This document shows positions 16,971-62,353 of a stretch of 64,000 nt of DNA, in pieces. The notes beneath the pieces are model-generated. The model was not told the DNA's origin. It searched no databases and saw nothing but the letters and a program-made list of their open reading frames with translations. This DNA is from Amphiscolops sp. MND2022 (Eukaryota). Positions within the stretch are counted from its first letter, which is position 1. Every line of letters starts with the position of its first letter. The translations under genes and the position numbers were made by a program. The DNA is taken from positions 48,734,001 to 48,798,000 of the forward strand of contig OZ076409.1 in assembly GCA_964187785.1 (NCBI GenBank), given 5' to 3'.

Positions 16971-17690
16971 CATTACGATACACGTACCGGTAAGCTGCAT
17001 TTCAGTCAAGCAGCGTAATCTGTGTAATCCGTAAAATGGTCATTCAGCGTAAGTTAGTCAAGACGGTCTATGCTTCAACGGTGTAGCTGTGTCAACGCGC
17101 GTAATGGAAAATAGTGTAAGCTAGTCAAAACACGTAGTTAGTGAAAAGTGGAAGTTAGTCCAAAAATACTCTTTTTCGTAATTCAGTCAAAACTTTGACT
17201 AACTTCCGCTTTTTGCAAATTGCATATCGCTATACTTGCAATAAGTGGAAGTTAGTCAAAGTTTTGACAAACTTACACCATGTTTATATGCATTCAAAAC
17301 TCAGTGTTCATTTTAATTCCAATTCATACCACAGCATCGTAAACCAGTCAAAGTAAACAACGATTCAATAAATAATTAGTTATCATTACTGAGCTCCACC
17401 GTGCATAGTACGTATAAACTGCATTCAATGCAAGTTGCACACGTGAACACGTGTGTTTCATCCACGCATTTACGTGCAAATAAAATACCTTGTAGCTTCT
17501 AATTAGTACAATTGATTGATCTGTCAACGATCTGTTTCCTATTTTAAAACATAATTTCAAAGCAGCCCTCATTAATAGTTGCCTAACTATTTTTAATTTT
17601 GGTCCCTGTCGTGAGCACAGTCACCGGAATGATTGGATAACTTGTTATTTTGGTCTGGGTATTTTGAGCCAGGGTATTGGCAAGGATCTA

Positions 17691-22458: not shown

Positions 22459-24203
22459 TTAGGAGCAATGTTCCTTTACGTGCATTCTATAATTTTCCAT
22501 TGTCTTGAAATTCACATTGGATACGAGTGTCGCGTGAACATAAATGTTGCTGTTGAAGTTTAGAGTTGATGTTTTGTCAACTTTGAATTTCAGGGACGTA
22601 ATGACAGCTGTTCCATCCGCAACTTTGTCCCATTCGTTGCCCAATATGTGGTCCCATGCTGATGTTGAAAAAGGGCCGTCGTCTTCTTTTATGGAGAATG
22701 TCACTGGGCCATTTGTGACACCGAACGCGTGAATCGTCACATCAGTGCAAGGGGCAAAATCTTGCTTGATGTCTTTGACTCTGCTGCCTCCACTGAGGGA
22801 ATTCATCAGCAAGTTCTTCAGGTTAGAATATGCCCAATACACTAACGCATGGTCGTCGTATAACGGCGCGCCAGGTGCGTTTTCAACTGCTCCCAGTCTT
22901 TTTTTCCGGAGATAACTTACAGGGACTGTTGCGTTAAAGGAAGGATCGTCCTGTTTTTCGACTTCTACGAGAAGTTTCGTCTTTAAATAGTAAATAGAAT
23001 TAATCTTCCAATCGCAGCCCAAAATTTCAACAATGTCTCCCTTGATGACGACTCCGGTGCTGATGGGGACACAAACTAGTTCTTTTCGTTCAAGTGGGGT
23101 ACTTTTGAAACTCTGGCAAGGTCCACCAATGGTGATGGCCTGGGATGGTATTGCATCAGGATTACCGAATAATTTATCGTAGTCACTATTCCAAAGTTGA
23201 AAAAATATTAGAAAAATGATTGAAAAGTACTACAACTAACCCATTGAACCTATTTTGGTTGGTGATATGCGAATGATAGATATTTTTGCCAAAATTGAGA
23301 ACTCAATTCGCTTCGGAAAAACTGAGGATAAAGCACTTCGGAAACTTTTCCTCGTAGTATTGTCAAAAACATTTATGTATTCTACAAAAAATTCAAATCA
23401 ACTGTACGTGCTTTTTCTCGGGAGGCTGCCAACAACTTGCAACGTTAAACTTGCAATCATTCAACCCTCATAGTCTAGCTAAAAAATAGTTGTACCTCTG
23501 TTAAAAAAATATTGAAGTAGTATTTTTGGTAAGCCTGCTTTACATCAATTTTAGTCTTCTTTTTAGGCATCTTGGCGGGGATCGTGGCCTCTATTCGGCT
23601 GGTCACCAACACGGTCTTTTTGTCGCATCTTGAAGTAACGTGTTCTTCGTCAGATTCATCCGAGGACTCAGAGTCCTCGGGTTCTTCGAATTTCACTTTT
23701 TTGAAAACGGATGCTGCCTTTTGTGACAATTCGCATCGAAGCTGGTAGTATTTGATGGGGACCAAATTCACATTTTCCAGCTGTTCGTCGAAAAAAACGT
23801 TTTCTTCTATTGGTATCACAACTGGCGATATCAACATTTCTTTACGGAAGGGATCGTTTTTCATTACGAAACCTTCTTCGATGTCCCCTATGTGTCGGAC
23901 GCCGTCTTTAGCATGGGCCAGTGTGTAATGAACTTTATCGTTTCTAACACGTTTTTCTTTCATGTAGCCCAGAACATCAAGGCTCAGTGTCAGTTCAACG
24001 CTACGGCTGTAGCTTGGAATTGGCGTTTCGTTCTTTCGGATGGGCCATTTCTCTGGAAAGTCATGAAATTTTGGGGGTGTTCTAACGACTCCTGCTGCAT
24101 GTTTTGAGTTGTAATCCAACCATTTGACTTTCGCCTGGAAACAAAAACTTTTTAAAATGTAACTCATTGAACAAAACAGTAGTGATATTTCTGAAAGCAA
24201 CAA
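22459..24203 (-). CDS. Orphan, probably spliced cargo gene(s) of unknown function
   Basis: ORFs 23475-24203 and 22459-23022 (the latter open upstream to ~23190) are GC-richer than their flanks and protein-like; no family recognised. Confidence 0.45.
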
Positions 24204-25027
24204 ATGGCAAGTCTGAAAATCGAATATCTCAAAAACAGCAGCGATTTCTGAAAAATTATGAGGATGAAAGTTTCTTAGATATTTATATGTTTATTTGAAG
24301 AATATAGGATGAAAATTTAATAGCTCATGAGTTCGGTGAAATTCGGTGACGTAGGCTGATCGCCAAAGTCCACATTCTTCCTCGAAACATTGCAAGAGTT
24401 CTCCGATTTTGAAATTTTTCGAGAATGTCTACATTGTCTGTTTCGCACTCGGTTCAAGACTCGGTACTAGTAGTGGGTTTAAGAGGACTAAATTCAGTGT
24501 CTTTGTAGTGAAATGAGACTAATATTTTGTTGCTTTGGGCAAGCTAAGTTAGCAAAAAGACTTCAACTTGAACTGACTTCAACAAAAAATAGAATAACTT
24601 CAACTTAAACTTGTCACAGCCACAAAACCAAATTGGGTTAAATTGTTCCAGAATAATATGCCGGCCCGCGGGCGTTAATTTGAACCAATGTGGTCAAAAC
24701 TTAGATTTTCGGATAATCAGTTGAATTGCACAATGGAAAAATTAGTCTATTTAATGATGCTATTCATTACTATCCAATTCATAGTAATGAATGATGCCTC
24801 CTATGATGGGGATGACCATCATTACAAGGCCCACTTCATCCAATATTCAATCTTGGTTGAAACCTAAACCACAAAACCAGATTGGGTTAAATTGTTCCAG
24901 AGTATTTTGCCGGCCCGGAGGCGTTAATTTGAACTTGACTTTCGAATAATGATAATTATTAAGTGATTAGATAATGATGCCCCGTCCTGGCTGACTTCAA
25001 GTCACGCTGATAAGTCACGCTTTACGT

Positions 25028-25254: not shown

Positions 25255-28751
<3,497 letters not shown>

Positions 28752-30529
28752 AGCTCTGGCCCTTTTAAATTCTGGCCTTTTTATAAAATGGCGCGTTTGT
28801 ACATTTTCTAGAGAATGGCGCTTGTCAATTGTCACTACTACTACTGGCGATATCCAAATACTTGGCGATTATTAATACTACTACTACTGGCGATATTTGA
28901 ATTTTGGCGATTATCAATCAGCTAGCATCAAAGTTTGGAAACGTCTAAGGAATAACGTCTAAAGGTGTTCCGGGAATAACGTCCAGAGTAATAACGTCTG
29001 AAGTTCGATGTTTCAAGATACTCAATAAGCATGACATTGCTTTAGATGTTATTCCCGTTTAGCTTTCAGACGTAATTGCGTAGACGTTCCAGCTTTTCCA
29101 TCAAAATCATGAGGATTCAAATGAAAACGTCCAAGGAATAACGTCTAAATTTGTTCCGTAAATAACGTCTCAAGTGATAACGTCTAAAATTCCATGTTTT
29201 AGAGATATTGAATAAGCATGAAATAGCTTTAGACATTTTTCCGTTTTGCATTAAGACGTTTTTCCTTGGACGTTAAAGCTTCTCCGTCAAAAGCATGAAA
29301 AGGTATCTGAGTAGATTTATTCTGATTGAAAGTGAAGATATAGGAATCATATGAATGGGGGATTAACTGAAATCACTGAATTCTTTTTATTGAATGAAAG
29401 TGGAGAAATGGTAATCACATGAAATGGGAACTAAAATGAAATGGGAGTCACGTGGAAACAATGAATTCTTTTCATTGAATGAAAGTGAAAACTTGGTATG
29501 ACATCAAATGGGAACTGAAAATCATATGAGATAGGAATCAATATGGGAATGGAATCGGAATCAATGAAAACACAATGAATGGTTAACAAACAAAACGAAA
29601 ATCAAATGTATTCTCATCACATGAGTCCAGATAAAACTATTGGGCATCATGGACGTAAATATGAACAATACGCAAACTTGATTTTATTGTAAATTCTAGT
29701 TATCATCTGTGGATCAAACTCAATTCCAGAATTTTTCAAGGTTCCAATGATCTCTTCTCGTGACATACCTTTCTGTACATGATAAAATAACTCTTGGGCC
29801 CGCTTCTCCTTCTCACATGGGTCCCGCTTTCTGTGACTCTTCAGAGATTTAATGAACTGTTCCCGTCGTGTGGGATAATTTGATGACTTCGAATAACTCT
29901 TCGGGTTCTCACCTCCGTCATCTCCGTCAAGTTCCTCATCGTCATCACTGGAGCTCCCTGGATGGAACTCAGAGCCACTGGAGTCTGACTGATTTGTTCG
30001 AGGTCGTTTACTGTATTGTAATTAATTTATAACGCACAGAGAAAAAACTCAAAACTGACGTGAAAAGTCAGAAGAAACAGTTTCTTATTTTGACGTTAAA
30101 AATTCGTAGACATGATTTCAATTTCCAACAAATTTGGCAAACTTAAACAAGAACGTACTCTGATTCGGCTGAAATTGCATTTGCCATGGTCTTAGTTTTA
30201 ATCAAACTCAGTCAACCTCATATTCAAACGGTCGTTTGTATTCATCTAGATTAGCGAAAATATGATCAAAAATTGTCTCATTTTCCAAAAATGTTGGAAA
30301 AATTTTCAACGTGAAGTGTATGGAATAAATTAATTACACAGTAGCTCTCTTTTTACGCAGTGGGACAATTTCATTGGATTCACAGGAGTGGGTAGAAGAC
30401 TTCAGTTCCCGTGGGGTTGAACATATTATTCTTCCTGCATGGCGGTGTTTCCGTTGGGGGTTTCCTGCATCTGAAGACGCAAGAGTTTTATCTTTCGATC
30501 CAGGTGTTCCAAGTTGTAATACATGTTTT

Positions 30530-30702
30530 CCATGCTTGGATCCCGCACTTCCAGACTTCGATGCTGGAGTTCCAACTGGTAATCCAGGACTTGCATGCTT
30601 GGATCCCGCACTTCCAGACTTCGATGCTGGAGTTCCAACTGGTAATCCACGACTTGCATGCTTGGATCCCGCACTTCCAGACTTCGATGCTGGAGTTCCA
30701 AC
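30530..30702. repeat. 60-bp coding tandem repeat, ~3 copies (GLPVGTPASKSGSAGSKHAS)
   Basis: Visible in the DNA and in ORF 30334-31185. Confidence 0.92.
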
Positions 30703-32799
30703 TTTTAATCCATGACTTCCAGTTTGTGTTTCAGATGTTTCACCAGAGGAGGCAAGATGCTTCCCAGCAAGGGGTGTTCTTGGAGTAGTTGAAATATTTT
30801 GAAGCGGGGTGATTTTGAAGCCCTCGTCATTTTCAACATTTTGCAGTTTTGATAATTCGCTTAAATAAGTATTAAGCACTTCTCGTCTGTCTTTCGGAAC
30901 GACGTAATTGGCCAGAGCAGTGGCCGCTGTGTGGCCGGTCTGCTGTAAGTGTGAGGTAAATAGGGAATCTTGGTAATTCTTCCTGTTATTATGGAAATGT
31001 GTGTCCCACATTTTACGAATTGCTGTGGCGTGGAAGTCTTTATTAGAAAGATTGGGATCGAATAATTCTGTGAGGACACTTTTTATGTTCTTTGCCATCG
31101 AATGTTCGTACTTGTTGTTGGAAAGACAAGATCTGGTTCTGTCGAAAACTCTTTGACAAAACGACGTTTTAGTCTCTTTAGCCATTTATGTTGGTCGTTT
31201 TCAATTACTATACTGACATCATGAAACCTCCCAGTTTTATGGCGGTCTGTTTTCATCACCCCGTTTTGTTTTATAGACTCGAAATCTTTCCAGGTGAGTT
31301 GTAGGAGTGGTCCTGCCCGACAGTTTAACATAAAGGAAAGCATAAGGAAGTTAAGAGCTGAAAGTTCTTTGTAATAGAGAACCTTCTCCTCGAGATCCTT
31401 GTTAAGGAAATCTTGGACCATGTTATTTAGTCTCTGGACTTCGTCTAGACTAGGGACCTTTGCATAAAGTTCCTTTGATTTACGTCTTTTTTCCTTTTGG
31501 GATCCAATTAGGTATCGGCAGCGGCACTCGTGGAGTATTTTCTCCCAGGGATATTTCTTGAATCCGGGGTATCGGTCTCCGGTATGTAATTCCAAGTATC
31601 GGAAGAATTTACGTAGTTTAAATAAATAATTGGATATCGTAACTCGTTTCAAAATGTGGTCTTGCATGAATTTACGAATACTGTTTGCCAATGCGGTGGT
31701 CTCGTTGAATTCTTTAGTTTCGTAGACAATGTATCCTAAAAATTGGCGAAGTGTGGAAGACATCGTGGACACGGACACAACATCGCCATCATCCATCAAC
31801 CCTTGACAATGGTTGTCAAACTGGATCACAATGTCCTCAAATGGTTTTTGCAGCTTCTCTCGCAGAGTCCTCAAAGCAAGTTGGATCTCAACTGGATATA
31901 ACTTCTCGTCGCATCTGTTGAATATTCTCTCTAATTTCTGATGCTTTGGATGACTGCCTCGAAAGCTCATTCGTTTTAAGCAAGTTGTACATTGGAAGCA
32001 TCTTTTTGTTTTCATTGTCGAATGACAACTCAATATGAATGATTTCACTTTAGGATCCTAGTTCAGTTTGTGTGCGTTCGAAAGGTGGTCGCGCATTTTT
32101 TTCAGCTTTTTTTTACACACCACACATTCCTCAATTTCTGGTCTTTTTGCTTTGTTTGAAGTTTTAACTGTTCTATCTTCCTCGAGTTCATCATCGACAT
32201 CGGATTTTTCCGTTGCGATTGAATCTGTGGACTCGTGATCGGAGACAATTTCTCGAAAGGAAATGCTGGACGTATCCCCATCTCCATTCGAGGCGGAACC
32301 AATTTCACTTCGTGGTGAATTTCTTCGAAAGTGATTTTCTGAGGAAGTGGATCTTGACAGACCTTGAAGAAACGATGAAGCATTGCACTTATGGAGTTTT
32401 CCTACTTGCAAGTTATCTGTGTTGTAGAAGCACCAGCGGCAAACAAAATTGGCTCGGTGTTGCTCTTTAACATGCTTCACAAGGATTGATCTACCTATAG
32501 AAGTGCTCATAAATTTTTCAACACAATGAGGGCAAGTGAGAGGCTCACTACTGTTTTTTGTTATTTTGGCTTTTCTCGACCGACTAAACGACCGATGACG
32601 AAACATTTTGGAAGAGCACTTTTGCTTATGTTGCGATGAATCATGCGACATGAAACCGCAGAAGCACACACTGCATACAAAAGGAAGTTCGGGGTGCTTG
32701 GAGCGCACATGGTGGATCATGTATCTTCGAACGATTCTTTCAGGGCAATGTTTGCAAGGCATTCCAATTGACCTCTGATGTCCTTCAAGGGCAGTTTCT

Positions 32800-33030
32800 T
32801 CAATTTCTGTTCCTCGATTCCTGTACTTCTCTACTTCAAATTCTTTACTTCGATCAAAATCTTCAGTTTCTGTGCTTGGATTTCTGTACTTCTCTACTTC
32901 AAGTTCTTTACTTCGATCAATTTCTTCACTTTCTGTGCTTGGATTTCTGTACTTCTCTATTTCAAGTTCTTTACTTCGATCAACTTCTTCAGTTTCTGTG
33001 CTTGGATTTCTGTACTTCTCTACTTCAAGT
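32800..33030. repeat. 63-bp coding tandem repeat, ~4 copies (ELEVEKYRNPSTETEEVDRSK)
   Basis: Visible in ORF 32058-33551. Confidence 0.9.
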
Positions 33031-34556
33031 TCGGTTCTTGGATAAACTTCTTCAGTGGAACTGTCTTCTACCTTGTCTTTTTTCTGGGAAAGTTTACTAA
33101 AGAAACTTTCTTTTCGCCAAGGGGAACAATTCGTTTTGTAATCATATCGCAATTCGGACCCTGCGTCGATATTCTTTGTGGAGTAGAAGCAAATCATAAC
33201 TTCATTTTTTTCATTGAAACATTTGACAGGGTGACAGTTCTGAACTGAATAGGGATCAATGTCATTTATGCATCTCCCCTTGCACTCGGGTCTTTTCGTT
33301 GCGTCGATGAGGATACTTTCCGGTTTCCCGACATCGAATACATAAACGCTGTCTTCCTCTACAAAGTTTACTCGATCACCCCTATAAGATAGGGGTGATC
33401 GAGTAAAGCGCTTTACAAATAGACCATTTCTAGCGAATTCAGTTTCTCTGACAACGAAATCATCGGGGTCTTTGTCCTGAAAATTGCGTGGATTTTGTTT
33501 GTTGGCATCACTGAATGTTGCCGCTACAATACGTCGACTTCTCGATTGCATGAGTTTTCAGAAAATGGTGGTTGGATAGAGATTGGAATGAAAGACCGAA
33601 ATGTTGAAATTGAAATGAATTACAGAGTTAGCGAAAGCAGATAGAAATTGGAATGTTGGGTGTGAGTTGACACAAAGAAATTGAGGCGGACAATGGGAGT
33701 TGACACAGGGAACTGATTTGACAGAGGGAACTGAGTAGGATAGAGTGGAAACCTGAATGTGTAGAAGGCAGAGCAGCAAATCTGAAATATAAAAATTTTA
33801 GAGTAGTTGTACTTCACGAGAGCCACACCAATGGATTCATCTATCAATTCAAATCATTATCATCTAGATAATTTGGAGAGTCTTTCTGAATTGTAACAAT
33901 TCATGATTCAACGGAATCTAGACTAGGAAAAATAGAGAATATTCGAAGAAAATAAACCAAATGAGATCTAAAATTCAATCATAGGTCCGATTATTTTGAT
34001 CAGCAACCGTGGGAAACAGTGCGCAGAGTGACCAATTACTGGAAGGGAATCTTGCTTTCCAGAGATGTGAGAGTAATTTCCAGAGTCTACAAAACATTAG
34101 ACTTGGTATTAGCCAGAGGTCCAAATGTTTAGGGTCCCTTCACTGGCTGCTGGGCTTTAAAGGTGGCCAGTTTTCTTCAGAACATATTTTAAAATGCAAG
34201 TACAAAATGCAAAATCAAATGATATACAGAAACTGCGGACAAAGCATACATTTGAAAAAATTTCCAAAGGCATTCAACTTGTTTCATACAATATCCTAAG
34301 AAATTTGACTAATTTTAACAAAATTATAGGAGATCACATTTCCCGTTTCCCTTGGTTGTGAAGTCAAATGATTCCCATGTCTTCACTCGTGAGCTTTGAT
34401 TCACTCGCGACCTGTTTCATATCCCAACTACTCTTGACAAGGTCATCAGGAGCGACATCTATGGAATAATATTTTTGAGGAGTTTCTTCTACACGATTGC
34501 AAACGAAACCAACGTCTTGACGATTCATAGCATTTAGGACGTTGAAGCTTCGGATA

Positions 34557-35246
34557 TATATATATAATATATATAAATTCTAATTTGACCCCTATATGCG
34601 GGCATTGTTTATCACAAGTCAAACAGTAGTCATTTTGTCAAATTTAACAAATTGTAAGGTATTTGTTTAGGTATTCAAACCTTCCACTGTTTTTTATAAT
34701 TCTATCAGTTCAATACAGTTATTTTTGTCATACAAGTTGAAGTTTCCTGTGGACAGATTTCTTGTAACAAAATTTGGACAATCGAATAGAAAATGGGTGG
34801 CAGTTTCTTCAGTTATGCGACAGGAGCACATCGGACTGGCAGTCAAGCTTCTATTATAGGCAAAGTTATTCAGGGATGGATTGATGTCCAGGAGTACTTC
34901 GATGGAGGTCCTCATGAGTTCCTTCTGTAAAGAGAGTTTTATCAAGGCGGGGTCAGTGTCTACTCGAGGAACAATTTTTTTAAGGTTAGTTTCAAAGTCT
35001 GGGTATTGCCATCTGGAATTCCATTGTCGCAGTATATGGGTTCGACTAATGGCTTCATTGTAGCTCAAGGGGTCAGTTAAGTCAAGGTTCTTTTTGTTGT
35101 AGAAAGTTTTCAGTATGTTTCTGTGGAAAGTCACAAAAGTTACAGTTCCTTCACTTTTTATAAATAGCTCTGATAAAAGGTCTCTCTGCTGTAGTACTTT
35201 GGTGAGGAACTTAGCGGATATATTTTGGCAAACAATATCGATAGGT
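34557..35246 (-). mobile_element. 5'-truncated non-LTR retrotransposon (3' end of ORF2 with CCHC finger)
   Basis: SPMCSCRITEETATHFLFDCP zinc knuckle; (TA)n tail at ~34557-34575; 11-bp TSD AGCTTCGGATA at 34546-34556 and 35247-35257. Confidence 0.85.
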
Positions 35247-35661
35247 AGCTTCGGATACAATCCGCAAAAAACTCCTAGGTATTCTTTAGATGTTATTCCT
35301 AGTTTTTTAGTGAAACCATTCTTTTCAAAAAACATGACTGAACTGAAATCGTTTGTAGTTGCAACTGTAAAATGGCGTTGAACGAAATTTTGACTGGCGC
35401 ATTTTAACAGCCCTAGCTGAGAATGTTTGGAGATCGCCAGTAGTAGTTGAAAATTGTCTTTCCAACAAAACGTCAATAAAGTCGACCGAATCAATTTGTT
35501 ATCATCTACTATTATAGTGAAAGTTCGACAGAAATAACAGAAATTTGAAATCCATTGATCACAATTTTTGCTGGCGCTTTTCAGTCCGAGGACCCAAAAA
35601 AATGGCGTTTTTCAACAACTGGCGCTCCCGATAAGGGCTGAATACCGCCAGTCAGGAATAT

Positions 35662-35730: not shown

Positions 35731-36760
35731 AACTTGAAGTGTAATCATTAGTGAAGATGATCTTAGTACAGTAGCGTGATTAAAAAAAATGCCCGGCCTG
35801 CCTCTACACTGAGCGTTATCATAATTGATCGATTAAGCTATGATCAACTTTTAAAAATGCATGTTTGCTCAATTTCAACTGATTATATATTTTCAACACT
35901 TTCAAGTGATATCATATTTCAACATATTTTCAACTAATAACAACTAATTTTCAAATAGTTTTTTCTCCACCGAAGACAGTATTTTTCTTCCTTACATGAT
36001 GATGATACGTATGATACTAGTGGAGTCTCATAAATTTAGAAATGTTTTCAGGACAACCAAAGAAGTTTTTTTTGAATTTTTGAATTACGTTTCGAGTCAC
36101 TTGGTTTTTTCTCTGGGGTTAACGCTTTATCGCATAACGAGACAACCCGGTAAAATAGGTTTCAGGCACGCAGCTGTATGATCTCGGACATTTCAAAAAG
36201 TCTGTCGGAAGTTTGCAATTTGTTTTTTCTTCTTCTACCGTGACGGTCACTTCTGGTGGCTATCATAACTTTTGAAATTGTTTTCAAAATCATTAAGCCA
36301 GTATCATCGTTTTTGTGATTTGTTTCTGGTTTCTTGCTTAAACAGGTGTTGTATTTCAGATCGAAATGATACAAAAACCAATCATCACTTATGCTGGCAT
36401 CAATTACGTGAAACTCATATTCCTGAACGTCTTGTTCCCGAATGTGTTCCTGCTGGAAAGCAATGACTGTCTTCTTCCCAATGATCGCAGGAAGGCTACA
36501 GATTTCCTCAAGAAGCATTTAAAAGGTTTATTTTCTTTCCTTTTTTAATCAAAAACATACTATGTTTTTTATCAAAAACATATGTTTTTATCAAAAACAT
36601 ACATACTACGTTTTGGACAATTACGTTTACGATCTCTAGTTAGTAACTAGAGATCGTAAACGTAATTGTCCAAAACGTGGTTGTGAGATGTAAGGAACGC
36701 ACTTAAGCATAGCATTGTAGTTGATCGTTCGTGGCACGTTTTGATTCATGATTGTTGCAG

Positions 36761-39708
36761 GACTGAACGTAAACTTCTCTGATGTATACAAGCCCCATGG
36801 ATTCAAAGAAAGGTGTCCTTTGTTGCGCGAAGACGTATTCGATTTATTGATAATATCTGCACCTCCATCATTAATTCCCTGGACGACTAAAAGAGTTGGC
36901 TATATACGACAACTTTTCCCTTCGTTGCCCATTCCAGGCTCAACCTCTTTTTTAACAATTGACACTATTTTTTCACAACAGTCATTGGAAACAGGCGTTT
37001 CGCTGCAGAATTTTTGGAGCTCTTCTTTGAAGACTATATCAGAATCAGAAATTGCATTGGGTCATTTTATTGAAACTCTCAAGCAGTTTTTCACAAGTCA
37101 AACTTTGAAAATCAAGAAAAAAAACACCTTAGTGCATAAACTTCTTCATCTATTTCTGCCAAACTTGTTTTGCCTTCAAAGGGAAGACATTCAAATGGAG
37201 ATTCAATGCCTACTTACTCTCAGTAATCCTCAGGATCTTTTAGTCAAAATACGTCGACTTATACAATGCCCTTTCATCAAATCCACCATTCTCCCTTCAA
37301 GACGTGAACTTCAAGCAATCACAAATAAATTGAACGAAGATTTCAGATCAATACTTACTCCCAGAAGAACCCCCACTGGGTTCCGTGTTAATCTTGTTAC
37401 ATTTGTCAGATTCGTTGCCTGCAATTTGTATAACAAGACCAGCTTAGTCGGCTTGAGAGTCGACATTTATGGTGATGCAATGTCTCGGGGGAAAAAAGAC
37501 GTCGTACGAATGGCCTTCCGAATTTTGCAAAGCGGCATCGAAACTGAGCAATCCTCAACCCATGTCTTCACGTTTGCTGTGTTTGAGGTGAGTCGTTCAA
37601 GTTTTAATCTGAAAATTCGGAACTTGATTTCTTTTGTGAGCTACATCAAAATGTTTATTGAGAATTTTGGTCCCTGTTGTGAGCTACACTTAATAGTTTA
37701 GTGGTAACGCAAATCTAAATTTGGTCCCTGTCGTGAGTTACACTTAAATGATTACTAAGTAGTTGGAAAACCAATTTGGTCCGTCTTGAGCAGCACTCAA
37801 ATGTTTTGTTGATATAATTCTAAATTTTTCTCTGTTGTGAGAAACTGGAAGTTGAAATATGAAATTTTGGAATGTTTCCCAGGGTAAAGATGTGCGAATC
37901 AACCTGGAATACAATCTCGCCATGTTAGAAGTGCTTGGACGCCCTGGATGGCTATACAACGAAACAAAGGCCTTGCATGATGAAGGTGCTATACTGAGTT
38001 GTTCGGGTGATTCACCATTCCAACTGCGTCTTTTAAAAAGTGTTAGCAGTGATGTCTCTTGTCTGTCAAAGATGTGTCTTTATGTCAGTGATCCTGCAGA
38101 TATTTCGAATCCACCACTGAAACAGAGAAAAAAGACACCGCTGAATATAAGAGAGAAATGGAAGGAAGGGGGGTGATTCTTCCGTCAACTGTCGATTATG
38201 CTACTGGCCGAAGAACAGAACTGATCATTGACATCAACGAATGCATCCCAAAAGACTCTCTCATTTTTCTCAAATCCACTTTCAGTACATGCCCTGATTT
38301 GCTGCATATGGTTGTCCGTTCAGTCGAAAGTGACTTGAAGTTGCATGTGGACTCGATGTTGCTGTTGAAAGACCATGCAGAAATATGTAGACTCGAATGT
38401 AACATAACGGAACGAAATGTGAAACCGCCGAGATTCAGGTTTGAGATCGTTGAAAAACTCTGCAAGGCTGTATCTCTCAGTTTCAGAGACGCCGAAGTTA
38501 TAATTTCCGACTGCAACAGAATCAGCGACTATGGCCGATCAGACTGCCCAATTTTTGAAGGTGTATGTTCATTCGAAACACCTCATGTCTACAAAGCTGA
38601 TCAAACAACCTCTACAACGTCTTATAACGTATTGATATCATTGGTTGATGGGTTGGAGACATCTTTCACAAAAGGAGTGGGTATTTCTGTTCGGAAACTG
38701 GCTGACCTCCAATTCCAATCTCTTTACCAGTTACTTGATTTGCTTCGACAGAGAGAATTCAAAGATATTCCAAAGTGTAAAGATCTCTATGAGATTTATT
38801 ACCAGTCAACTTTATGTCTTTTCGGTGATCGTGCGTTGACGCCATACAAATTGAAACTGGATATTTTACTCAGACTTTTTGAGAAGGGTGAGCTTCTGTC
38901 TCCATTTTATTACATGACAGAAGGAACTGAAAAAAGCCACCACATGGCAGCCAAAGACTACAATACGAAGACAATGCGTGATGGTGGCAATGATGCTTGC
39001 AACATGTCATCCAGTTATCTCGATATTCAGTTTTCCTTCTACCGTGCAATTGATTTATGTTCTTCAAAGTCTTCGACACTTGAATCTTACCGGAAGTTGT
39101 ATGGAAAAACCGACGTGACAAAGTCGTATCTTGAAATTTGCTGTGAACCCATTCCAGAACCTGAACTTGACTATCTTAGAACTGAAGACATGTTTAGAGG
39201 TATGCACTTTGTCATTCTTGGAACATATGGTCACCTGAAAGAAACTCAAGCGAGTCTTGAGAAGAAGATCACTGAAAATGGAGGAAATGTTGTTTCCAAT
39301 GTAGACATCATCAACAGAAGCAAGCTGAATTTTTTGAGCCATCACTATTGCATTTTACCAAATCGAAATTGTATCGACGCATTCATTAAAGGTCAACAAG
39401 GTAAAGAAAAAGCTGCAACGAAGGCGCTTTCCAATACGATACTCGGTAACTGGATTTACTTGAACGCTGAATTTGTAATCGCCTGTGTACAGAAGAAGTC
39501 CTTGATTGATCCCAAAGGTTATGTTTTTGAAGTAGATGAGTCTGTGAGAGCCAAATTCAAAACGATGAAGTACATATCTATGGCCCCACAATTACAACGT
39601 CAATCAAACCCCCTACGACATGGTTCATTAACTTACCTCACAGCAATGCGGAAGTACAAGAACGCACTAAAAAAGGCCACCTTGAAGAGAAAACTAGACG
39701 ACGTTTAA
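36761..39708 (+). CDS. RAG1/Transib-like DDE transposase with a C-terminal BRCT domain (spliced; 5' exons uncertain)
   Basis: Candidate triad IYGDAM / CSGDSP / TEGTEKSH. DLLH and TPYKLK motifs parallel RAG1 DALH and TNYFHK..SEGNESGN. BRCT: FRGMHFVILG..ITENGGNV..LNAEFVIACV. Phase-0 intron 37588-37882; one frameshift in a G-run near 38170. Confidence 0.68.
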
Positions 39709-40537: not shown

Positions 40538-43500
40538 ATGGCAACACTGCCGACCACGCCATCAACGTCTCGTCGAAAGACACCAGAGAAAGTCCCATGT
40601 GGCCAAGGTTCGATAAACGATTTTTTTTTGTGATCAAGCTGTAACGTAATCAAGCTGTAACTTTTTTCACGGAAAAGTTTAATCTGACATATGGCATTCC
40701 TTTTAGGCACTTGTGACGTTGTGGACAAGCTGTCCAACATTCTACGCCACCGCAAAGTCTGTCCCCGAATGCCACGAGAGCAGTTCAAGCTCATGGAGAG
40801 AACGTGCCAGCTCTGCGGCCAGATCATTTCCGCCAAAAAACTGCTGAAGAAGCACTACAATACAAAGTATTGTAAGGAGCAGCAAAAGCGGAAAGCAGAA
40901 GGCCTGCCTACCCGAATGTACCAGTACGGTTAGTCATTACAATGTATGTAAAAAATTGATCGACTTGTAACATTTTGAAAAGTCCAGTTTATCATGCCCG
41001 AAACGATAAGGGAAACTCAATGATTTTGAAAAAAAAACTAGGTCTCAAACAAAAAGGGTGTTTTCATTCATGTAACTTCTATGTTACAGCAGCTGCAAAA
41101 GGCTTGACGCGGAGGCCTAACTTATGCTACGGCAGAGGTTGTGGCAAGTCATATGTTTACCCTTATGACTTGCGCGTGCACCTTTTGAAGAATCCTCAAT
41201 GCCAGGAAGGAGCGAATGTGAGTGCCTGTCCTATTTTTTTCCTCTTTAAGAACACATATTGAATGATTTGATTGACCAATTGATTCTCGAAACGCCGTGT
41301 TTTACACGGTGAAAATGTGACTGGAACTCCGAATGAGTCATTTTATCGTGGCAACTGTTTAGGCTGCAGTATCTTTGGGCTCCGATTCGTCTAGCAACAC
41401 TGACGAGCGATTCAGGCCAGAAGATTTCAACCACATTCCTTCTGATGTGTTTGGATCTGATGGATTTTTCAAGTTCGCGATGGAAGTGCCCCTCGACTAC
41501 AAGTTTCCTGTAGCTCAATGGGAAGGCAACGTTGACGACCATGTCGTCAAATTCAATTCCCTGATGAGACACAGTGTGCCTCTGTTGTGGCGTGGAGGTG
41601 TCAACCATTGCCATGGTTTGAAGCTGCCTCAAGTGGAAGAAATCGCTTTCACTGAAGTTGTCCAAGAGCTTCTAGTCCCCCAGAAGCTACAAGCAAGTGC
41701 AGCAACCATCAATGTCAAGTCGGCAAAAATTGGAGAAGTAAGTCTTTGGTTGAATTACTTTCAATTTGAAGCTTGTATTTTTCGTAAAATATCTGGAACA
41801 ACTGCAATTTGATCCCTGTCGTGAGCTCATTTTCAAACTTGGACAAGTCTTTGGTAGAATTACTTTCAATTTGAAGCTTGTATTTTTCGTAAAATATCTG
41901 GAACAACTGCAATTTGATCCCTGTCGTGAGCTCATTTTCCAACTTGGACAAGTCTTTGGTAGAATTACTTTCAATTTGAAGCTTGTATTTTTCGTAAAAA
42001 AATATCTGGAACAACTGCAATTTGATCCCTGTCGTGAGCTCATTTTCCAACTTGGACAAGTTGAACTTGTCGAACAACTGCATTTGAACTATTCTAGCGA
42101 GTAGAAAGTTGTCCGTCTTATTCCCGTCTTAGTCAATTTATGATCATTTCATTTCAGAGTCGTGACCTCTGTCTCGACGATTTCAAGCAGGAGCTCATCA
42201 ACGCCGACAGAAGCAGCGTTTACTATCCTTTAAACGCTATAGACATCGCCATGCAGCAAAAGGTAAACATCATTGAATGAGCTCCTTTGATTGAAAACGC
42301 AAATCCACTGAAAAATGACTTTTCCTTTTCTGTTTTTCTTCAACCCCCTGTTTACTAGTAGTTGCGTACAAATTGGACTTTGAGGATGCACATTGTTTTG
42401 AAACAACTTCAACTTATATTGATTTTTTTTGTCTTTTCAGTCCATCTACAGCGTGCCAACGATGATAAAAAAGTCGTCAGTCACACCCTTGTGGACGAGC
42501 TGGTCAGTAAGTCAGCAGAACCGTTCTCAGTAGCGACTTCATACTACTTGCTGATCTCCAACGATGGTTGTCAAACAACTTGGCACACGGACTTCAGTTC
42601 AACATCTGTCTTTTATACAGTCTTGACTGGGTCCAAGACCTTCTTTCTGGTTGCGCCAACTGAAAACAACATGGAGTTGTTCAATGCCTGGTCCAAACAA
42701 GAACGCGACGACATGTAAGTTGAATTTTTTCACCAAGGAATTTCAGCTTTTGCGTTCATCTATTTTTGTATTTTTTTTGCATCATTTTGCATCACGGGCC
42801 ATCATTTCCGTACGTGTTTTCAATGTATTTGCGAAATTTTCAACTTTCAATGCACTATATTGTTTTTGCCAACAGTTTTCGTTTTAGGCCAACATTTTTT
42901 GGATGCCACAAAAGACTGGAGGGGGGTTGCCTCAGGGTTACTCTTAATCCGGGCGACGTTTTCGCCATGCCGTCTCAGTACATCCATACAGTCCTCACAA
43001 GTGGAGACTCTGTGGCAGTAGGGACGAATTTCCTTTCAGAAGGTCATTTGAACCAGATCATGAAGGCGATCATTGAAGAAGACTCCGTCAGGGAGCATGA
43101 GAAGTTTCCGGGCATGTTGGAAATGCTAGCTATTTTGATGCTCAAAGCATCAGAGAGATGCATGATAACTCCGGACTTCCTTCGACTTCACAGGGTCATT
43201 GAGAATCGATATCAAGAAAGTGAAGCTGTTGCTGTGAGTTGTATTTTTTAGTTCACAATCGTTTCGAATCAAACTAAAAGATCGAATTAAGTATTTGTAT
43301 AATGAAGCCGTGTTGTGACTCACAACAGGGACCAAAACTAAAATTGGTAATCATCATGAATAATGTTGATGATGACGTTGTGGCTCACGACAGGGACCAA
43401 AATTAAAGGTGGTAATGATTAATTCGTGAGCCACAACGTTATCATCGACATTATTTGTTGATGATCAACAAAGTTGATCAAATAGCTTAGTGAGTTATCA

Positions 43501-50741: not shown

Positions 50742-51172
50742 TCATAATGAAGGGGCGATTGCTTCATTGAGCTTGGTAATTTTGGTCCCTGTCGTGAGCA
50801 CTTCCTGTAGTCAGATTTACTGTTTATGCGATTTGATACTGTGTATGCGAATCAAGCACTGTAGTTATGAGTCGGCGTGTGTAGCTCACCAGTAACAACC
50901 CGTAATTACCCGAATTATGTGTAAATATGAGATGCACAGTGTAGTTAGTCAAATTGCTTAAACTAGTCATATGGTGTAAACTAGTCAAATACTGTACTGT
51001 CCAATGGTGAAACTAGTCAACGTACGAAGCTGTGTCAACTAGTGTAACGTCCTATCAATGCGCGTAATGTGTGACAAGTGTAAAACTTCCAAAAAAAATA
51101 TTCGCGCTCTGATTGGACAAAAATCGAACTAGCAGGATCCTGCTAGTTCATACCGGCATGTGTATCGTAATG

Positions 51173-55047: not shown

Positions 55048-55966
55048 TGTAACGGCTGTTTGCCCTTATCCTGCGCTGAGGCTTGACAAGCTTTACGCCG
55101 CCCTGATCCGTTGCTTAGTGCAGTGGACCGTCACTAAACAATTGCTGGTTTTCGTGTTTTAAAGGACTGTATCTTTTGACTGGTGGGTCCGATGTGACCC
55201 GTGGAATCTCCAGCGATTCCTCTTGCACTGAATTGGATCCGATGTGATCCTGCACACACTTCCCTCACGGTATCTTCACGCGCTCCGGCTCTTCGACTAT
55301 GAGAGTAGCTACTTAGTCGCTCTGACTCCAGCGAAATGTTGTGAAGATTGAGAAGTTGATTAATTAGTCTCTTGGTCCTAAGACCCAACTTGACTATAGC
55401 TATTCAGTGGAGAAAATCTCTATCTAATAATGGTATAAATCTGGTTGACAATTTTACAGTAAATATAGAACAAATATCAGTCGAAACATGTGGTATAAAT
55501 AAATGACATTTAAAGCATAAAATGAAGTTATTGGCTATGTAAACAAAGCACATGGTGGTTTTGGCATGTTGGTCAGGTGGGTTAGAAAGTATGTTTACAC
55601 TATGTAAATATCATTAGTTTCAACAGAGTTACATTCTAATGTGGTCTTATAGGTAAATAACAAAGTTTACATTTTTGTCTCAATGACCTTGAATACTACA
55701 CATGTGAGGGGTAAAGGGGGTTATAATGGGTGGATGACCTTGAAACTTTACTGGTGTGTTTGTGTTATGTATTTGCATATGGGTGCCAAGTTTCGTGGCT
55801 CTAGGGTTAGTATTCTTGGAGAAAACCCATTTGGGGGGGTTTCCATTTTTGTCACACTTGATATTTCTTCAAAATTTCTTCTGAGTTTTTAGGAGTTTAA
55901 GTTCTTGTATCTCAACCAGCATGTTCTGAATCGAGTTTCTTTGCCTTTTGATGACTGGCGCCAACA
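55048..55966 (-). repeat. BEL 3' LTR (919 bp)
   Basis: About 20 differences from 62698-63617 by hand count (~98% identity). Confidence 0.96.
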
Positions 55967-58900
55967 TTGCCGGCCCTGTTTTTCTCCCGAAAAACACTTT
56001 CGTAGAACATGGGTGCCAGTTTCACTACTGGTCTTTTGAGTTTTCCATCTTCAGTTTTCACCAGCGCTGATCTCACTCGCCCATCGCTTCCATGATAGAC
56101 TTCTAACACTCTACCCATCTTGTAAAGTGCTCTTTTCACCTTTTCATCCACTATCCAAACCAAATCATTGACTTCAAGTTGTCTAACTTCTTCTTTATTC
56201 CATTTAGATCTCTCATTCCATTGCGGTAAATATTCTCTATTCCATCTGCTCCAAATCATGTCTGCGTATGCTTGTGATACTCTGAATACTCTTCTCAGAT
56301 CGGTATAACGCTGAGCGTCAGGAATGAACGGGGTTGCTGGACTTGCACGTCCTAGCAGGAAGTGATTTGGAGACAAAGCTTCCAAATCTTCGGGATCATC
56401 ACTGACACTAGTCAGAGGTCTCGAATTCAGAATCTGCTCGACTAGACACATTGTTGTGGATAATACATCATCTGTCAGTGTTCTGTTTCCCACAATTGCC
56501 ATCATAGCTTTCTTGCAGCTTCTAACCATTCGCTCCCAAACACCTCCAAAATGCGGAGCTCCTGGGGGGTTGAACTTCCATTTTATTTGCTTTAGAGCCA
56601 AAGACTGCTCAATATCTGATTGATTCCACGCTTCTATCCATTCTCGCATTTCTCTAGCTGCGCCCACGAAATTTGTTCCATTATCACTCAGAATGATATT
56701 CGGTTTTCCTCTTCGAGCGATGAATCTCGTAATTGCAGCGAGACATGCGTCGGCTTCCAGGCTGGGCACGACTTCAATATTCACAGCTCTTGTTGTTAAA
56801 CACGTGAACAGACAACACCATCGTTTCTTTGATTTCCTCGTGAATTCCACTTCGAATGGTCCAAAGTAGTCTACTCCAGTGTTGGCAAAACGGAAAACCC
56901 TTTCTTCCAATCTTTCTTTAGGTAGGTCTGCCATGAAAGGTTGAACTCCTCCGACTTATTGCTTTCTACACTTAACACACTTCAGCTTCACATTTCTAAG
57001 CGCGTTTCGGAGTCCAATTATCCAATAATTCTGCTGCAAAATACTGCGAACATACTCTGTTCCTTCGTGGTAGTTATTTTCATGCGCATCTTCAATCAAT
57101 TTCCTCACTATTGGATGCTTCGCAGATAGCAAAATTGGATGTTTCATTTCATAACTGGCATCAGCGTGACGCAGTCGTCCTCTTAATCGCATGAGGTTCT
57201 GCTCGTCCATAAATGGTGACAGTTTGTTTAAGTGATCAGATGCAGCCATTGGTTTACCTGCGGCCAATGCTTGATATGCTGGACCAAAACTTTCCATCTG
57301 GCTCTTCCGCAGTAACAGTTGGATCACTTGCTGCATTTCTTCTGTTATTACCACCTTTCTTTTGCTTTTTGATTTGAACCGAAGGCAATAGGCGAAGATG
57401 CGGGTCGTTCTTCTGAAAGAACCGAACTTCTCCCAATCAATGTCCTTTTCTTCTGACACGACTTCAAAGACTTGCTCTATGTCTTCTGTTTTCTGCTGAA
57501 ACAACTGTGGTGAGGTTTGTGGCCAAGCATCTTCCTTTTCTTGAAGCCATGCGGGCCCTGTGAACCACTCGCTCTTTTCTAATTCGTGGACGGATTTTCC
57601 TCTTGTTCCAATGTCGGCAGGGTTTAAGGTTCCTTCGACATGTCTCCACTGATCAATAGTTGAACTGTCAAGGATTTCGGCGACTCTATTCGCTACAAAC
57701 ACCGGTTGTTTCTTGTCAGCTCCATGCAACCATTGCAAAACGGTTGTCGAATCCGTCCAAAAGAAAGTTCGTTCAACTTGAATGTCGTGTTCGTCTACGA
57801 TCAGTTGTTTTAATCGGGTTCCATACATAGCTGCTTGTAGCTCTAGTCGGGGAATTGATTGTTGCTTCATTGGCGCTACTCGGCATTTCCCTACCACATA
57901 GGCAAGCTCTCCAGTTTGTTGATCTCGAAAGTAGGCAACCATGCACATGGCTTCCAGGGATGCATCGGCGAAAATATGCAAGTCCACTACTTCAGCATTT
58001 TTCGATAGATATTTTCTTTTGATAGCCATTTCATTCACGTGATTCAACTCCGATGCCCAATCCTTGAATGCTATCTCGTCTTCTGGAGAAACTTGTTCGT
58101 CCCACGATTGCCCATGCTTCTTCCAAATTCCTTTGAGGAACAATCTCATTCTCACTGTGAAGGGGGAAAACAATCCCAACGGGTCAAACACAGAGGATAC
58201 GTGAGATAGAACAATTCTCTGAGTGATCTTGACAGGCACCTCTTTTCCCGTACCGCGGCAAATCTCAAGACTGTCTGACTCCACATCCCACTGGAGTCCC
58301 AAGATAGAGGGTGCCAAGGGTTCAGCTTCGAATGTTTTACTTAGCGCGTCTGATCTATCTTCAGAAGGAATTTCTTCCATTACTTTCTCTGAGTTGCAGA
58401 TCCATTTCGTTAGTTGAAAGCCACGATTCGCTAAGGATTGTCGCAAGCACTTATACACTTCCACAGCTTCTTCCCTCGAAGCTACTGACTTCACAAAATC
58501 GTCCATATAGAAGTTTCTGTTGATCAACTTTGCAACCATCCCATTGTCATCTCTGCTGTCTCGTCCGACTTGTTGCAAAGCGTAGTTGACACATGTTGGC
58601 GAACTCTTAGCTCCAAAAAAGTGTCTTCCATATTCATACACAGAGATAGGGTCAGTGTGGTTTTCTCTCCACAAAAATCTCAGTACTCTGTAATCAGTAG
58701 GGGGTACTTTCACTTGGAGAAACATTGCTTCGACGTCTGCTGTCAGGGCGATTTCCTTTTCCCTGAATCTGAAGATAATTCCTATCAGCGATTGTAGGAG
58801 GTCTGGACCGGCCATTAAGTTATCATTCAGCGAAACACCTCCGAACTTTGAGGCAGCGTTGCATACGCGTCTCACTTTGTCTGGCTTGTTCGGGTTCAGC

Positions 58901-61900
58901 ACAGGGAGATGCGGAACGTACCACTGAAGGTCTGTTTTTGTGTTTTCAAGTTCTTCTTCCTCCAGAATTCTCACAAACCCCTTTTGTACGTCCACATCAA
59001 TTGTCTCTTTGTAGCGTTGTTTCAAGTTCGCATCCTTCTCCAGTCGGCGCACGAGAGACTTCAATTGGCTTACTGCTGAACTGTAATTGTTTGGCAAATG
59101 CAGCTTTGCATTTTTCCAAAGTAGCCCGACCTCGTACCTCTCTCCATCAAAATTTGTGGTTGCCTTGAGCATTTCGAGGGCTCGCTCGTCTTCCTTGGAC
59201 CTTCCGGATACGCTGCAGTTGGAAGCATACGATTTCATGCTCCACCAAGACTTCACTTGATCCGCTAACGGGTCCACTTCTGCTGCAACTAGACTTTCAG
59301 TTGCGAGCTTTGCTGTCTCTTGTTGAGGCAATGGTCCACTGAGCTTCCATCCCAGTTTCGTTCGCACTGCCCAAGGCTTGGCGTTTCCACACTTTCTATA
59401 GTCGATTGCTCTATGCAATTGGTAGCAATCTTGGCCCAAGATGACTTTCACATCTTTCAGGTTGATGGTAGAATCTTTCAGCACTGACAGGTGTGGATAT
59501 TCTTCCTTCAATTTTTTGAGGTTGTACGTTCGATTTCCTGCATTTACGTCGGGATGACTATAGGCCATGATATCTTCTTTGACTTTTCCGTCCTGATCTC
59601 CAATCCTGACTCGAAGTCGTTCGCTACTAATATCTGACGTTCCATGAATCCCTGCAACATTCAAATCCACTGGCTGTCCCGTCAGATTTAGCGTTTTCAT
59701 CAGGCTCTCGTCCACAAAGGACAGGCTTGCTCCAGAGTCGCACAAAGCGAACGTTTTCACAGTTTTGCTCCCACTCCCTATCGATACTGGAATGACTGGA
59801 AGCACTCCACTGCTTCTCATTGAGGACAGGTTGGAGACCTCATCGACATTTTCAACATTTTTCTTTTGTTCCACGTTCTTGTATGTCCTGTGTAGCAATC
59901 TGTGATGAGGTTTTCCGCAACCATTCATATCGCAGAGTCTACCACAGCAATTTCTCATCTGATGTGCGTCTGACAAGCATTTGAAGCACAATTTCAGCTC
60001 TTTCGCCTTTTGTCCTCTTTCTTCGACGTTCATCTTCTTGAACTTCTCACATTTCCATATTGGATGTTTGCCATCTTTCAGCGCACACTCTGGCTGGTAT
60101 TTTGAGTTGTCACTGGTTGTGTTTGTTGTTGATGTGGCAAACGTGGAGCCTTTGGCCTTTTCCTTGTAGTTCAACTTCGCGCGATCAGCATTCGGGTTTG
60201 AAGACAAAAGCAATTCGTCTTGAACATCTGCTATATCATTGAGCCATTCACTGAACACAGCGAGTCCAGGTTGACACAGGTTCATTTGCTTGACATAAGT
60301 GAGCCACTTCGTTTTCATGTCCAGTGTTAACTTCCTTGTGGCACTGCCCAGAACTCCTTCTGAGTTTGGGTCTCCCACGTAGTTGAATTGTGTCAAAACA
60401 TTCACGCAACTCGACACTATTCTCGCAAACTTGATCAATGCGGCTCCCTCATAAGGTTTCATCGGAGGGAACGAATAGATTCGCTTCAACTGGGCGTTCA
60501 CAACCATTTGAGGTTTTCCAAAGTTTCGAACTAGAATGTTCCACGCCACATTGTACATCTCAGCAGTGTACCCAAGGCCAGCAATCGCTTCGTTGGCTTT
60601 GCCTGTGACCATGGTTTTCAGGTGATTCATCTTTACACTGTCGTCCATATTGGCTGCGTGGACGGTTGCTTGAAAGAGTTGTGACCACTCTGGCCACTCC
60701 AATGGGTCACCGGAAAACTCTGCCAGCTTCAGTTTTGGCAAGCTAGATCTGATGTAGTAGTCATCTCTCGCATTTGACACTATGTTTGGCCCTTGACTTG
60801 GCATATACTGCTTCTGTGTGTTCTCAAGCTGTGGTACTTGAAATGCACTACTCTGGATGCCTCCAAACGTAGGCGGTAACCGATTCGGGTCTGCACTGAG
60901 AATCATCGACGGCTTCGATGGGGCGAATTTCACTTCTGGTTGTGCTGTTGCTCTTTGACTGACAGCATCTATGACAATCTTTGTTCTGTGCTTTCCAATA
61001 CCTCGACTAGCGGCTTCGGTGGATATAGTCGGTTTCACTGGAGGATTCAAGTCCCTCACTAGCGCGGAGCATTGTCCTTCATGCATCGATTGTACTGTTA
61101 TTACTGGTGCTGAGACGGACGTTTGCTGGTATACAGATGGCACGTTAGTCGTCGATGCCACGTTTTCAGCTTCTTCTGTCTTGTCCATCCAATCTGAGAC
61201 TTTCGTCAGATTGTCGTCTGGAGTCTCGACTGGTGAGATTCTCCGGAAACTAGACCCACAACTACTCGGAACATTCGCCATCTCTTTTTCCTTTTCAGCA
61301 ATTCTGGCCCTGCGGGCCACCTCTTCTTGCAAGTCTGCTATCTCCTTCTCTTTTGCCTCTCTTTCCAATTGTTTTGCTTCTCGTTCCAGTTTCTCCAGGC
61401 GCTTTTGAAGTTCTTCGTGCTCTTTCAGAGCTTTCAGTTCTAAATGCATAACTCGTCTTGCACTTGATGTTTTTGAAATCACTGAGGTTTTGTTGCTTTT
61501 GGCTCTTTCACTTCGCGAATGTATACTCAATTCTTCTATTGGCAATGATCTAGCTCCATTTCTTGGCTCTTGGTTGTCATCCGCGTTGTGACCATCATGT
61601 TCCTTTTGCTCATCGTCTGGTTGCCGCTCCTTTTGTGGTGAAGTGCCATTTTTACTTGATTTGTCTGCGGCTACGCTTGCGCGAACGTCTGCCAGTCTTT
61701 GTTCAGCGTCTTCAAGACTTCGCAAAATGGCTCCTCCTTCTCCTGTCTTCAGCAGATCTTCAATCTTCGTTTTAATGTCAGACCGTTTCTGCAGCAATTC
61801 TTGACATGCTGCAGCATAATCTTCTTCGTCGACAACTTTGCCATTTGCGATTGAATCTTCCCGCAACTTTTTGTTGCTATCCATTAGTCTATCAATAGCA

Positions 61901-62319: not shown

Positions 62320-62353
62320 CTCTTCTCTTGTCGATTGAACTCAGTTCCCAAAG

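Follow-up and report, generated by a model that had tools for sequence, protein, structure and literature searches.

The window analyzed here is a stretch of 64,000 nucleotides of contig OZ076409.1 from Amphiscolops sp. MND2022, in which an earlier note, made from the sequence alone, had recognized at 36,761 to 39,708 a RAG1/Transib-like transposase fused to a BRCT domain and apparently lacking the RAG zinc ligands. The locus raises the question of which element such a protein would mobilize, whether it has the catalytic core of RAG1, and where it stands among known transposon groups. The analysis described below indicates that the protein is probably the transposase of a transposon of ~28 kb, with a predicted RAG1-like core that lacks the four zinc ligands and a terminal BRCT domain that would dock on repair proteins.

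Boundaries, Copies, and Target Site Duplications of the Element

Comparison with other copies in the same genome delimited a whole element on the plus strand of the window, at 16,971 to 51,172, which defines what is called family 1 below. Homology to other copies begins exactly at a left terminal inverted repeat of 22 bp (16,971 to 16,992, plus strand) that starts with CATTAC, and 20/22 of its bases agree with the right end once the latter is reverse complemented. At the right terminal inverted repeat (51,151 to 51,172, minus strand), homology to 5/5 large copies stops. The element measures 34.2 kb here, including a nested insertion of 6.9 kb, and other family-1 copies span 27.6 to 29.4 kb (n = 9 measured), with ~28 kb being typical. 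Five copies were compared with 40 kb of context and are collinear with 16,971 to 51,172, the exception being the 6.9-kb insertion, which is private to the window. Direct repeats of 196 to 227 bp are located near both ends of the family-1 element, and a dispersed 20-bp motif resembling TTTTG[GA]TCCCTGTCGTGAGC occurs at least 16 times within it (17,597 to 50,812), also in introns and hairpins. The element is flanked in the window by LTR retrotransposon ORFs at 6,540 to 15,700 and 55,912 to 62,340, a decayed Gypsy-like set and a nearly intact BEL/Pao-like set (labels assigned by eye).

Fifteen other family-1 copies were fetched, and both ends could be located in 13 of them. Target duplications of 2 bp, varied in sequence, flank 12 of these 13 complete copies, for which the chance expectation is about 1e-13; the remaining copy has no target duplication. 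The window copy likewise lacks a duplication, since its flanks read gt on the left and ga on the right. A partial copy 45 kb upstream (G000:C1:48,705,424-48,724,642; L079-L081) is 98% identical to the window copy, and its left flank ends in ga in the same satellite as the right flank of the window copy. This match between flanks suggests that the window copy is a composite formed by recombination.

A search of the genome with the transposase returned 121 match rows at 91 to 100% identity (120 scored candidates of 898). The exact 24-base pattern of the left end occurs 291 times in the genome, a figure that overcounts the copies because 4/4 close pairs checked arise from a second, internal copy of that end. 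This duplicate, of ~110 bp, belongs at about 27,288 of the window (L139:9465), where most other copies carry it and the window copy does not. Over the last 509 codons, pN/pS between the window copy and 16 intact copies was 0.25 to 0.34, based on about 10 + 10 changes in non-independent comparisons. Family 1 is a giant, young, and recently mobile inverted-repeat DNA transposon with more than 100 near-identical copies.

Structure of the Transposase Gene

The transposase gene is predicted to have three exons on the plus strand. Exon 1 (36,366 to 36,525; 160 nt, beginning with ATG) was missed in the earlier note, as it lies outside the extent claimed there; the same exon with its GT donor is found in 5/5 copies, and it resembles by eye the N termini of the intronless relatives P0046 and P0050. 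Exon 2 (36,761 to 37,587) carries the first catalytic Asp at 37,474 to 37,476. A GT-AG intron (37,588 to 37,882, plus strand) separates the first Asp from the second, at a point that P0016, P0018, P0033, and a second family of the same genome (family 2) cross without interruption. Exon 3 (37,883 to 39,708), of 608 codons in intact copies, carries the second Asp (38,009 to 38,011), the DxxH motif (38,296 to 38,307), and the final Glu (38,929 to 38,931), followed by the BRCT domain. Conservation of the GT-AG sites in other copies, together with the continuity of relatives across the second intron, suggests that these exons are spliced, and the predicted product in intact copies would have about 940 residues.

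The window copy is interrupted by a frameshift that had been placed in a G homopolymer and considered a possible sequencing error. That explanation is ruled out, as the G6 run (38,168 to 38,173) is identical in 20/20 loci. The break is located instead in an A run (38,128 to 38,133, plus strand) that is A6 here; at 18 other loci matching the pattern (19 examined), it is A7 in 16, A6 in 1, and A8 in 1. By hand count, 73 of the 121 match rows show an intact frame of 617 residues without stops, and therefore the frameshift of the window copy, real or an assembly error, matters little.

Conserved Catalytic Motifs and Absence of Zinc Ligands

The motifs earlier aligned with RAG1 by eye are all present where they had been reported: RVDIYGDAM at 37,456 to 37,482, CSGDSP at 38,000 to 38,017, CPDLLHMVVR at 38,290 to 38,319, LTPYKLKLD at 38,836 to 38,862, and YMTEGTEKSHH at 38,911 to 38,943. 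The earlier note set them against the RAG1 motifs around D600, D708, DALH, and E962 and found the two His ligands of HKTLAH not evident. Conservation in an alignment of homologs shows that the motifs are not due to chance. When 1.84 billion representatives were searched with a profile, 434 clusters matched at E <= 0.001, and the best 150 of these 434, together with the results of another homolog search, yielded alignment A2 of 120 rows. Among the rows covering each position, the motifs are near invariant: the first Asp is D in 30/30 and the second in 58/58; DxxH has Asp in 66/69 and His in 68/71; and ExxE is conserved in 84/85 and 84/86, the latter position being the final catalytic Glu.

The zinc ligands are absent from the same alignment. 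The suspicion that the two His ligands are missing proved correct and extends to the two Cys ligands. The two alignment columns that should hold the His ligands contain His in 0/85 and 0/86 rows; a His-x3-4-His pattern ahead of the final Glu is present in 7/79 rows, none of them at the ligand columns, and C..C between the second Asp and DxxH occurs in 2/56 rows, at unaligned places. As a control, EnSpm transposases from the same genome were inspected and have C..C in 7/7 and the His pair in 5/5 sequences reaching the region. In the window, the segment expected to carry a C(2)C zinc motif (38,072 to 38,086, plus strand) has no conserved Cys, and its single Cys aligns to a position where 40 of 67 rows have Pro and 3 have Cys. 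The place of H(3-4)H is taken by a TPYKxK segment (38,836 to 38,862, plus strand) with Tyr in 84/85 rows, Lys in 81/85 rows, and no His at the expected columns. Two conserved motifs, [LM]P[LM]Y and, as described, TPYKxK, stand where zinc ligands are expected, and the zinc clasp appears to have been replaced by this hydrophobic/basic motif pair.

Predicted Fold of the Transposase Core

Because the first Asp is encoded by a separate exon in the window gene, the single-ORF relative P0033, which is 32% identical to the last exon of family 1, was folded instead of the window protein. The AF2 model of P0033 (pLDDT 90, pTM 0.86) gave 50 Foldseek matches at E <= 0.001, and all 38 listed are RAG1, HzTransib, BbRAGL, or P-element transposase; HzTransib was matched at E 1.6e-6. 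VIA-align scored RAG1 at Z 17.5 (415 aligned residues, rmsd 4.3), BbRAGL at 16.8, the P element at 11.7, and HzTransib at 11.2, and residues 663 to 791 matched BRCT domains at Z 8 to 11. The model of the last exon from an intact family-1 copy (pLDDT 85) reached Z 11 to 12 with RAGL/RAG1 and up to 9.9 with BRCT domains; with this model, Foldseek returned BRCT matches only, none of them at E <= 0.001. In the P0033 model, the triad residues D206, D288, and E574 are carried by a strand at 200 to 210, the end of a strand at 282 to 287, and the start of a helix at 571 to 587, which are the usual RNase H positions. These secondary-structure positions and the overall superposition support a clustering of the three acids in space in the model. 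The structure prediction that had been suggested as a check thus points to a RAG1-type RNase H core with a D-D-E triad.

Queried against the PDB by sequence, neither the last exon nor alignment A3 matched anything at E <= 10, and the sole match of alignment A1 was the BRCT domain of ligase IV (E 0.003). No Pfam transposase family matched the family members scanned; Transposase_21 (PF02992) and Plavaka (PF18759) in particular gave no match on 11 + 13 + 1 members, and PF02992 does find other elements in the genome. A comparison with EnSpm of the same genome by hhalign gave 0.1 to 0.2%, that is, no match. Searches of the genome with Pfam RAG1 (PF12940) and Plavaka (PF18759) produced no candidates, but the controls were silent as well, which makes these searches uninformative. 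Because the sequence comparisons revealed no link to either RAG1 or EnSpm, the equivalence of residues to RAG1 rests on fold, order, and spacing.

In the ESM Atlas, the nearest clusters are unnamed or RAG1-like, with all scores under 0.9, and serve as a lead only. A search with the first 100 residues of P0050 gave no usable match, which leaves a Bro-N-like domain, proposed there by eye, unsupported. Of 20 family representatives whose records were consulted, none bore an informative name or taxon. Relatives were also sought by exact short DNA patterns, a search of low sensitivity, which confirmed 13/233 candidates in metagenome contigs (1.4 to 6.9 kb, too short for ends or cargo), 0/76 in prokaryote genomes, and 0/29 in viral contigs.

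A Single BRCT Domain Follows the Core

The BRCT pattern that had been seen after the transposase core is borne out by both sequence and structure. The region at 39,190 to 39,528 (plus strand) is a single BRCT domain that contains a helical insertion, matching Pfam BRCT_2 at E 8e-5, which falls below the curated cutoff, and solved BRCT domains at a structural Z of about 10 (model residues 434 to 553; Z 9.9 with MDC1 and 9.3 with XRCC1). It is aligned in 57 of the 60 rows of A2 long enough to hold it. The fusion, like the predicted RAG1/Transib fold and the loss of zinc ligands, is therefore a property of the whole family. No transposase-BRCT fusion was found by title or abstract start in the literature searched, a search that lies outside Repbase and most subscription papers.

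Phosphopeptide-binding BRCT domains of the BRCA1/MDC1 type form a tandem pair, in which a Ser or Thr before the beta-1 Gly provides the phosphate pocket. Unlike these, the family domain is single and lacks the pocket residue, the column before the beta-1 Gly being Ile in 25, Leu in 24, Val in 17, and Thr in 2 of 81 rows of A2. Recruitment through this domain is thus unlikely to depend on phosphorylation, judging from the aligned residues. XRCC1, DNA ligase III/IV, PARP1/PARP4, RFC1, and REV1 contain single BRCT domains whose fold the family domain is predicted to share (Z 8 to 11); it differs from them in its helical insertion, in the lack of Ser/Thr before the beta-1 Gly, in an identity of 10 to 21%, and in being fused to a transposase.

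The earlier suggestion that the domain recruits host repair factors is plausible. By HMM, the domain matches ligase IV of yeast (E 0.002) and RFC1 (E 0.004) best, with PARP1 also among its matches, and the nearest matches by sequence and structure are split among the BRCT domains of XRCC1, ligase IV, MDC1, PARP, and RFC1, so that no rank separates the subtypes. Docking of gap-filling or end-joining proteins is tentatively put forward as its role, at somewhat under an even chance. The same element and enzyme could instead use the domain to grip DNA or nucleosomes, for target capture or stability of the complex, with no recruitment of repair proteins. The BRCT domain of PARP1 grips DNA or nucleosomes; a single domain without the phosphate-binding Ser/Thr would suit such a role, RFC1 and PARP1 are among the HMM matches, and PARP4 at Z 9.8 and PARP1 in its nucleosome-bound form at Z 9.4 score level with other BRCT matches, but XRCC1 and ligase IV rank equal or higher and the ranks do not tell subtypes apart. 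We regard this use as possible, with a probability of perhaps a third, and it competes with the BRCT step alone of the transposase explanation. A function other than docking on repair proteins or gripping DNA or nucleosomes seems unlikely.

A Second Family with the Same Ends and Duplication Length

The relative P0018 maps to family 2, which is represented in the same genome by 67 match rows. Its transposase is an intronless ORF of 1,017 residues that is 25 to 39% identical to the window protein, depending on the segment, and the two families show no nucleotide match. The family-2 element is 17,832 bp long, and five copies are 99.3 to 99.9% identical; they include G000:C11:29,114,452-29,132,283 (L107-L108), which carries an intact intronless transposase, and four others. 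The ends are perfect 22-bp inverted repeats, also starting with CATTAC, and a 2-bp target duplication is present in 4/4 copies with both ends. A direct repeat of 220 bp is located subterminally. Family 2 is probably still, or was very recently, mobile. Its cargo includes homologs of the SET, JmjC-like, C2H2, and function-unassigned genes of family 1, oriented opposite to the transposase. Since this independent family shares them all, the ends, the duplication length, and the cargo can be regarded as lineage traits that travel with the transposase.

Cargo Genes and a Nested Element

Three cargo regions were delimited in the window copy. The first, a gene of at least two ORFs to which no function was assigned (22,459 to 24,290, minus strand), is common to 5/5 large copies; it has no Pfam family at the cutoff and a weak family-2 match (tblastn E 3e-4). 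The second (26,295 to 28,500, plus strand) combines a part recognized by eye as tyrosine recombinase-like, with no Pfam match, and a SET domain (E 3e-10 in an intact copy) that is common with family 2. The third (40,688 to 43,251, plus strand) encodes, in several exons, C2H2 zinc fingers and a JmjC-like domain, for which the Pfam JmjC/cupin and C2H2 matches are weak and below the cutoff, and it is 42 to 57% identical to family-2 ORFs. A likely function of the SET and JmjC-like cargo is to manage the chromatin of the element itself.

A tyrosine recombinase-like ORF lies upstream of SET in both families (by eye), which would allow a reading in which this gene moves the element and the RAG1-like gene is a passenger. 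Such a reading is very improbable: inverted ends combined with 2-bp duplications are given as a DDE signature in PMC12730594, the D-D-E triad is near invariant, and the recombinase-like ORF lacks a Pfam match as well as an evident catalytic Arg (by eye). An endogenous virus, a virus-like element, or a domesticated host gene might also be considered, given the large size and the many genes. Nevertheless, no BFVD match was obtained at E <= 0.001, the candidates in viral contigs remained unconfirmed (by exact short patterns of low sensitivity), no capsid- or polymerase-like ORF was seen among the ORFs of at least 90 residues in one full copy (Pfam applied to part of them), and a single host gene is ruled out by the dispersal of copies, each with its own flanks; this origin can be set aside as extremely improbable. 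The reading in which the RAG1-like protein moves the element is followed below.

The 6.9-kb insertion (28,748 to 35,660, minus strand) is a separate nested element with recombinase-like, SET, and zinc finger parts and is not part of the RAG1-like transposon. It is inserted in a (TAC)n tract, is absent from 5/5 large copies, and is found alone elsewhere beside TAC; at six other loci, long TAC tracts were found at the ends in four and one or two TAC units in two. It looks like a microsatellite-targeting element, which we take to be Crypton-like. Within it, an ORF at 34,694 to 35,611 (minus strand) ends in a LINE-type Cys/His knuckle (by eye) and is partly missing from its other copies. Elsewhere, at L082 and L089, ordinary EnSpm-like transposases share one open frame with a SET-like domain upstream of them (by eye), indicating that SET capture recurs in unrelated transposons of this genome.

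Proposed Mechanism and Implications

In the most likely mechanism, the enzyme would bind the 22-bp CATTAC ends, and the D-D-E triad, helped by the His of DxxH, would cut the element out. The element would then be joined to new DNA at a stagger of 2 nucleotides, from which gap filling by the host would produce the 2-bp duplication. The process would amount to RAG1-type cut-and-paste without the zinc clasp by which the insertion domain of RAG1, Transib, and EnSpm is held together, and the single BRCT domain would work without phosphorylation, docking the enzyme on host repair proteins. A bolder proposal, which we consider rather doubtful, is that these elements form a new superfamily-level lineage of giant eukaryotic cut-and-paste transposons, nearest to RAG1 among solved transposases, that combines zinc-free RAG chemistry, a BRCT hook coupling cutting to end-joining or gap repair in one chain, and SET/JmjC shielding from silencing.

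The zinc site is treated as a hallmark of RAG1, Transib, and CMC enzymes and as a requirement for folding. That a widespread and recently mobile lineage lacks the site indicates that it is dispensable and offers a natural test of its job in RAG1. With a BRCT domain fixed on the transposase, the handover of broken ends to host repair by RAG-type enzymes could be tested via deletion of one domain. Another possible use is the delivery of large gene cargo, for which these elements, 18 to 29 kb long and up to 99.9% identical among copies, are candidate tools.

Comparison with Known Transposon Groups

Among known systems, the closest structural likeness is to RAG1 and its RAGL relatives (ProtoRAG, BbRAGL), which are the best matches of the predicted fold (Z 17.5 and 16.8 over 412 to 415 residues) and in which D, D, DxxH, and ExxE follow one another as they do here. 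The family core, however, is 11 to 12% identical to theirs, lacks the ZnC2 and ZnH2 ligands, and is followed by the BRCT domain. The family elements, at 18 to 29 kb, also differ in carrying chromatin cargo. Among the cargo ORFs scanned with Pfam, none gave a RAG2-like kelch match. Transib (HzTransib) shares the predicted fold (Z 11.2) and likewise has its transposase flanked by short inverted ends. For RAGL and Transib, PMC7204232 describes CAC ends, 5-bp target duplications (mostly 5 bp in Transib), and four zinc ligands that stabilize folding, and Transib is included where zinc motifs are described in PMC12730594. The family has CATTAC ends, unlike ends that begin with CAC as the RSS heptamer does, and 2-bp duplications. 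The original filing under Transib/RAG accordingly does not hold, and membership in Transib/RAGL is ruled out by duplication length, ends, and zinc motifs.

The wider CMC grouping is confirmed in PMC5718144, and PMC12730594 (Kojima 2025) defines a CMCT clade of EnSpm/CACTA, Mirage, Chapaev, Transib, Plavaka, ESTA, as well as Lanisha, characterized by CA..TG termini, duplications of 2 to 5 bp, a DDE triad, and a middle His. The family shares all of these, its duplication falling inside the 2- to 5-bp range, and its ends are similar to those given there for PlavakaB (CATCA..TGATG, with duplications of 2 to 3 bp). Its chromatin-enzyme cargo echoes the TET/JBP-carrying fungal elements of the CMCT clade. 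These resemblances would fit a very divergent member of a named CMCT lineage (EnSpm, Mirage, PlavakaB, ESTA, or Lanisha) or an existing Repbase entry. We consider such an assignment unlikely, since the family lacks C(2)C and H(3-4)H, which the same paper describes as common to all CMCT lineages including Transib, no scanned member has a Plavaka or Transposase_21 Pfam match, and the EnSpm elements of the same genome show no profile similarity. The BRCT fusion is a further difference. The supplement of PMC12730594 contained 0 matches for Lanisha, Mirage, or BRCT. Because the family behaves like a CMCT transposon but departs from the clade in its zinc motifs, it was not filed in any named lineage. 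It is likely an undescribed branch of the group of transposons from which RAG1 arose.
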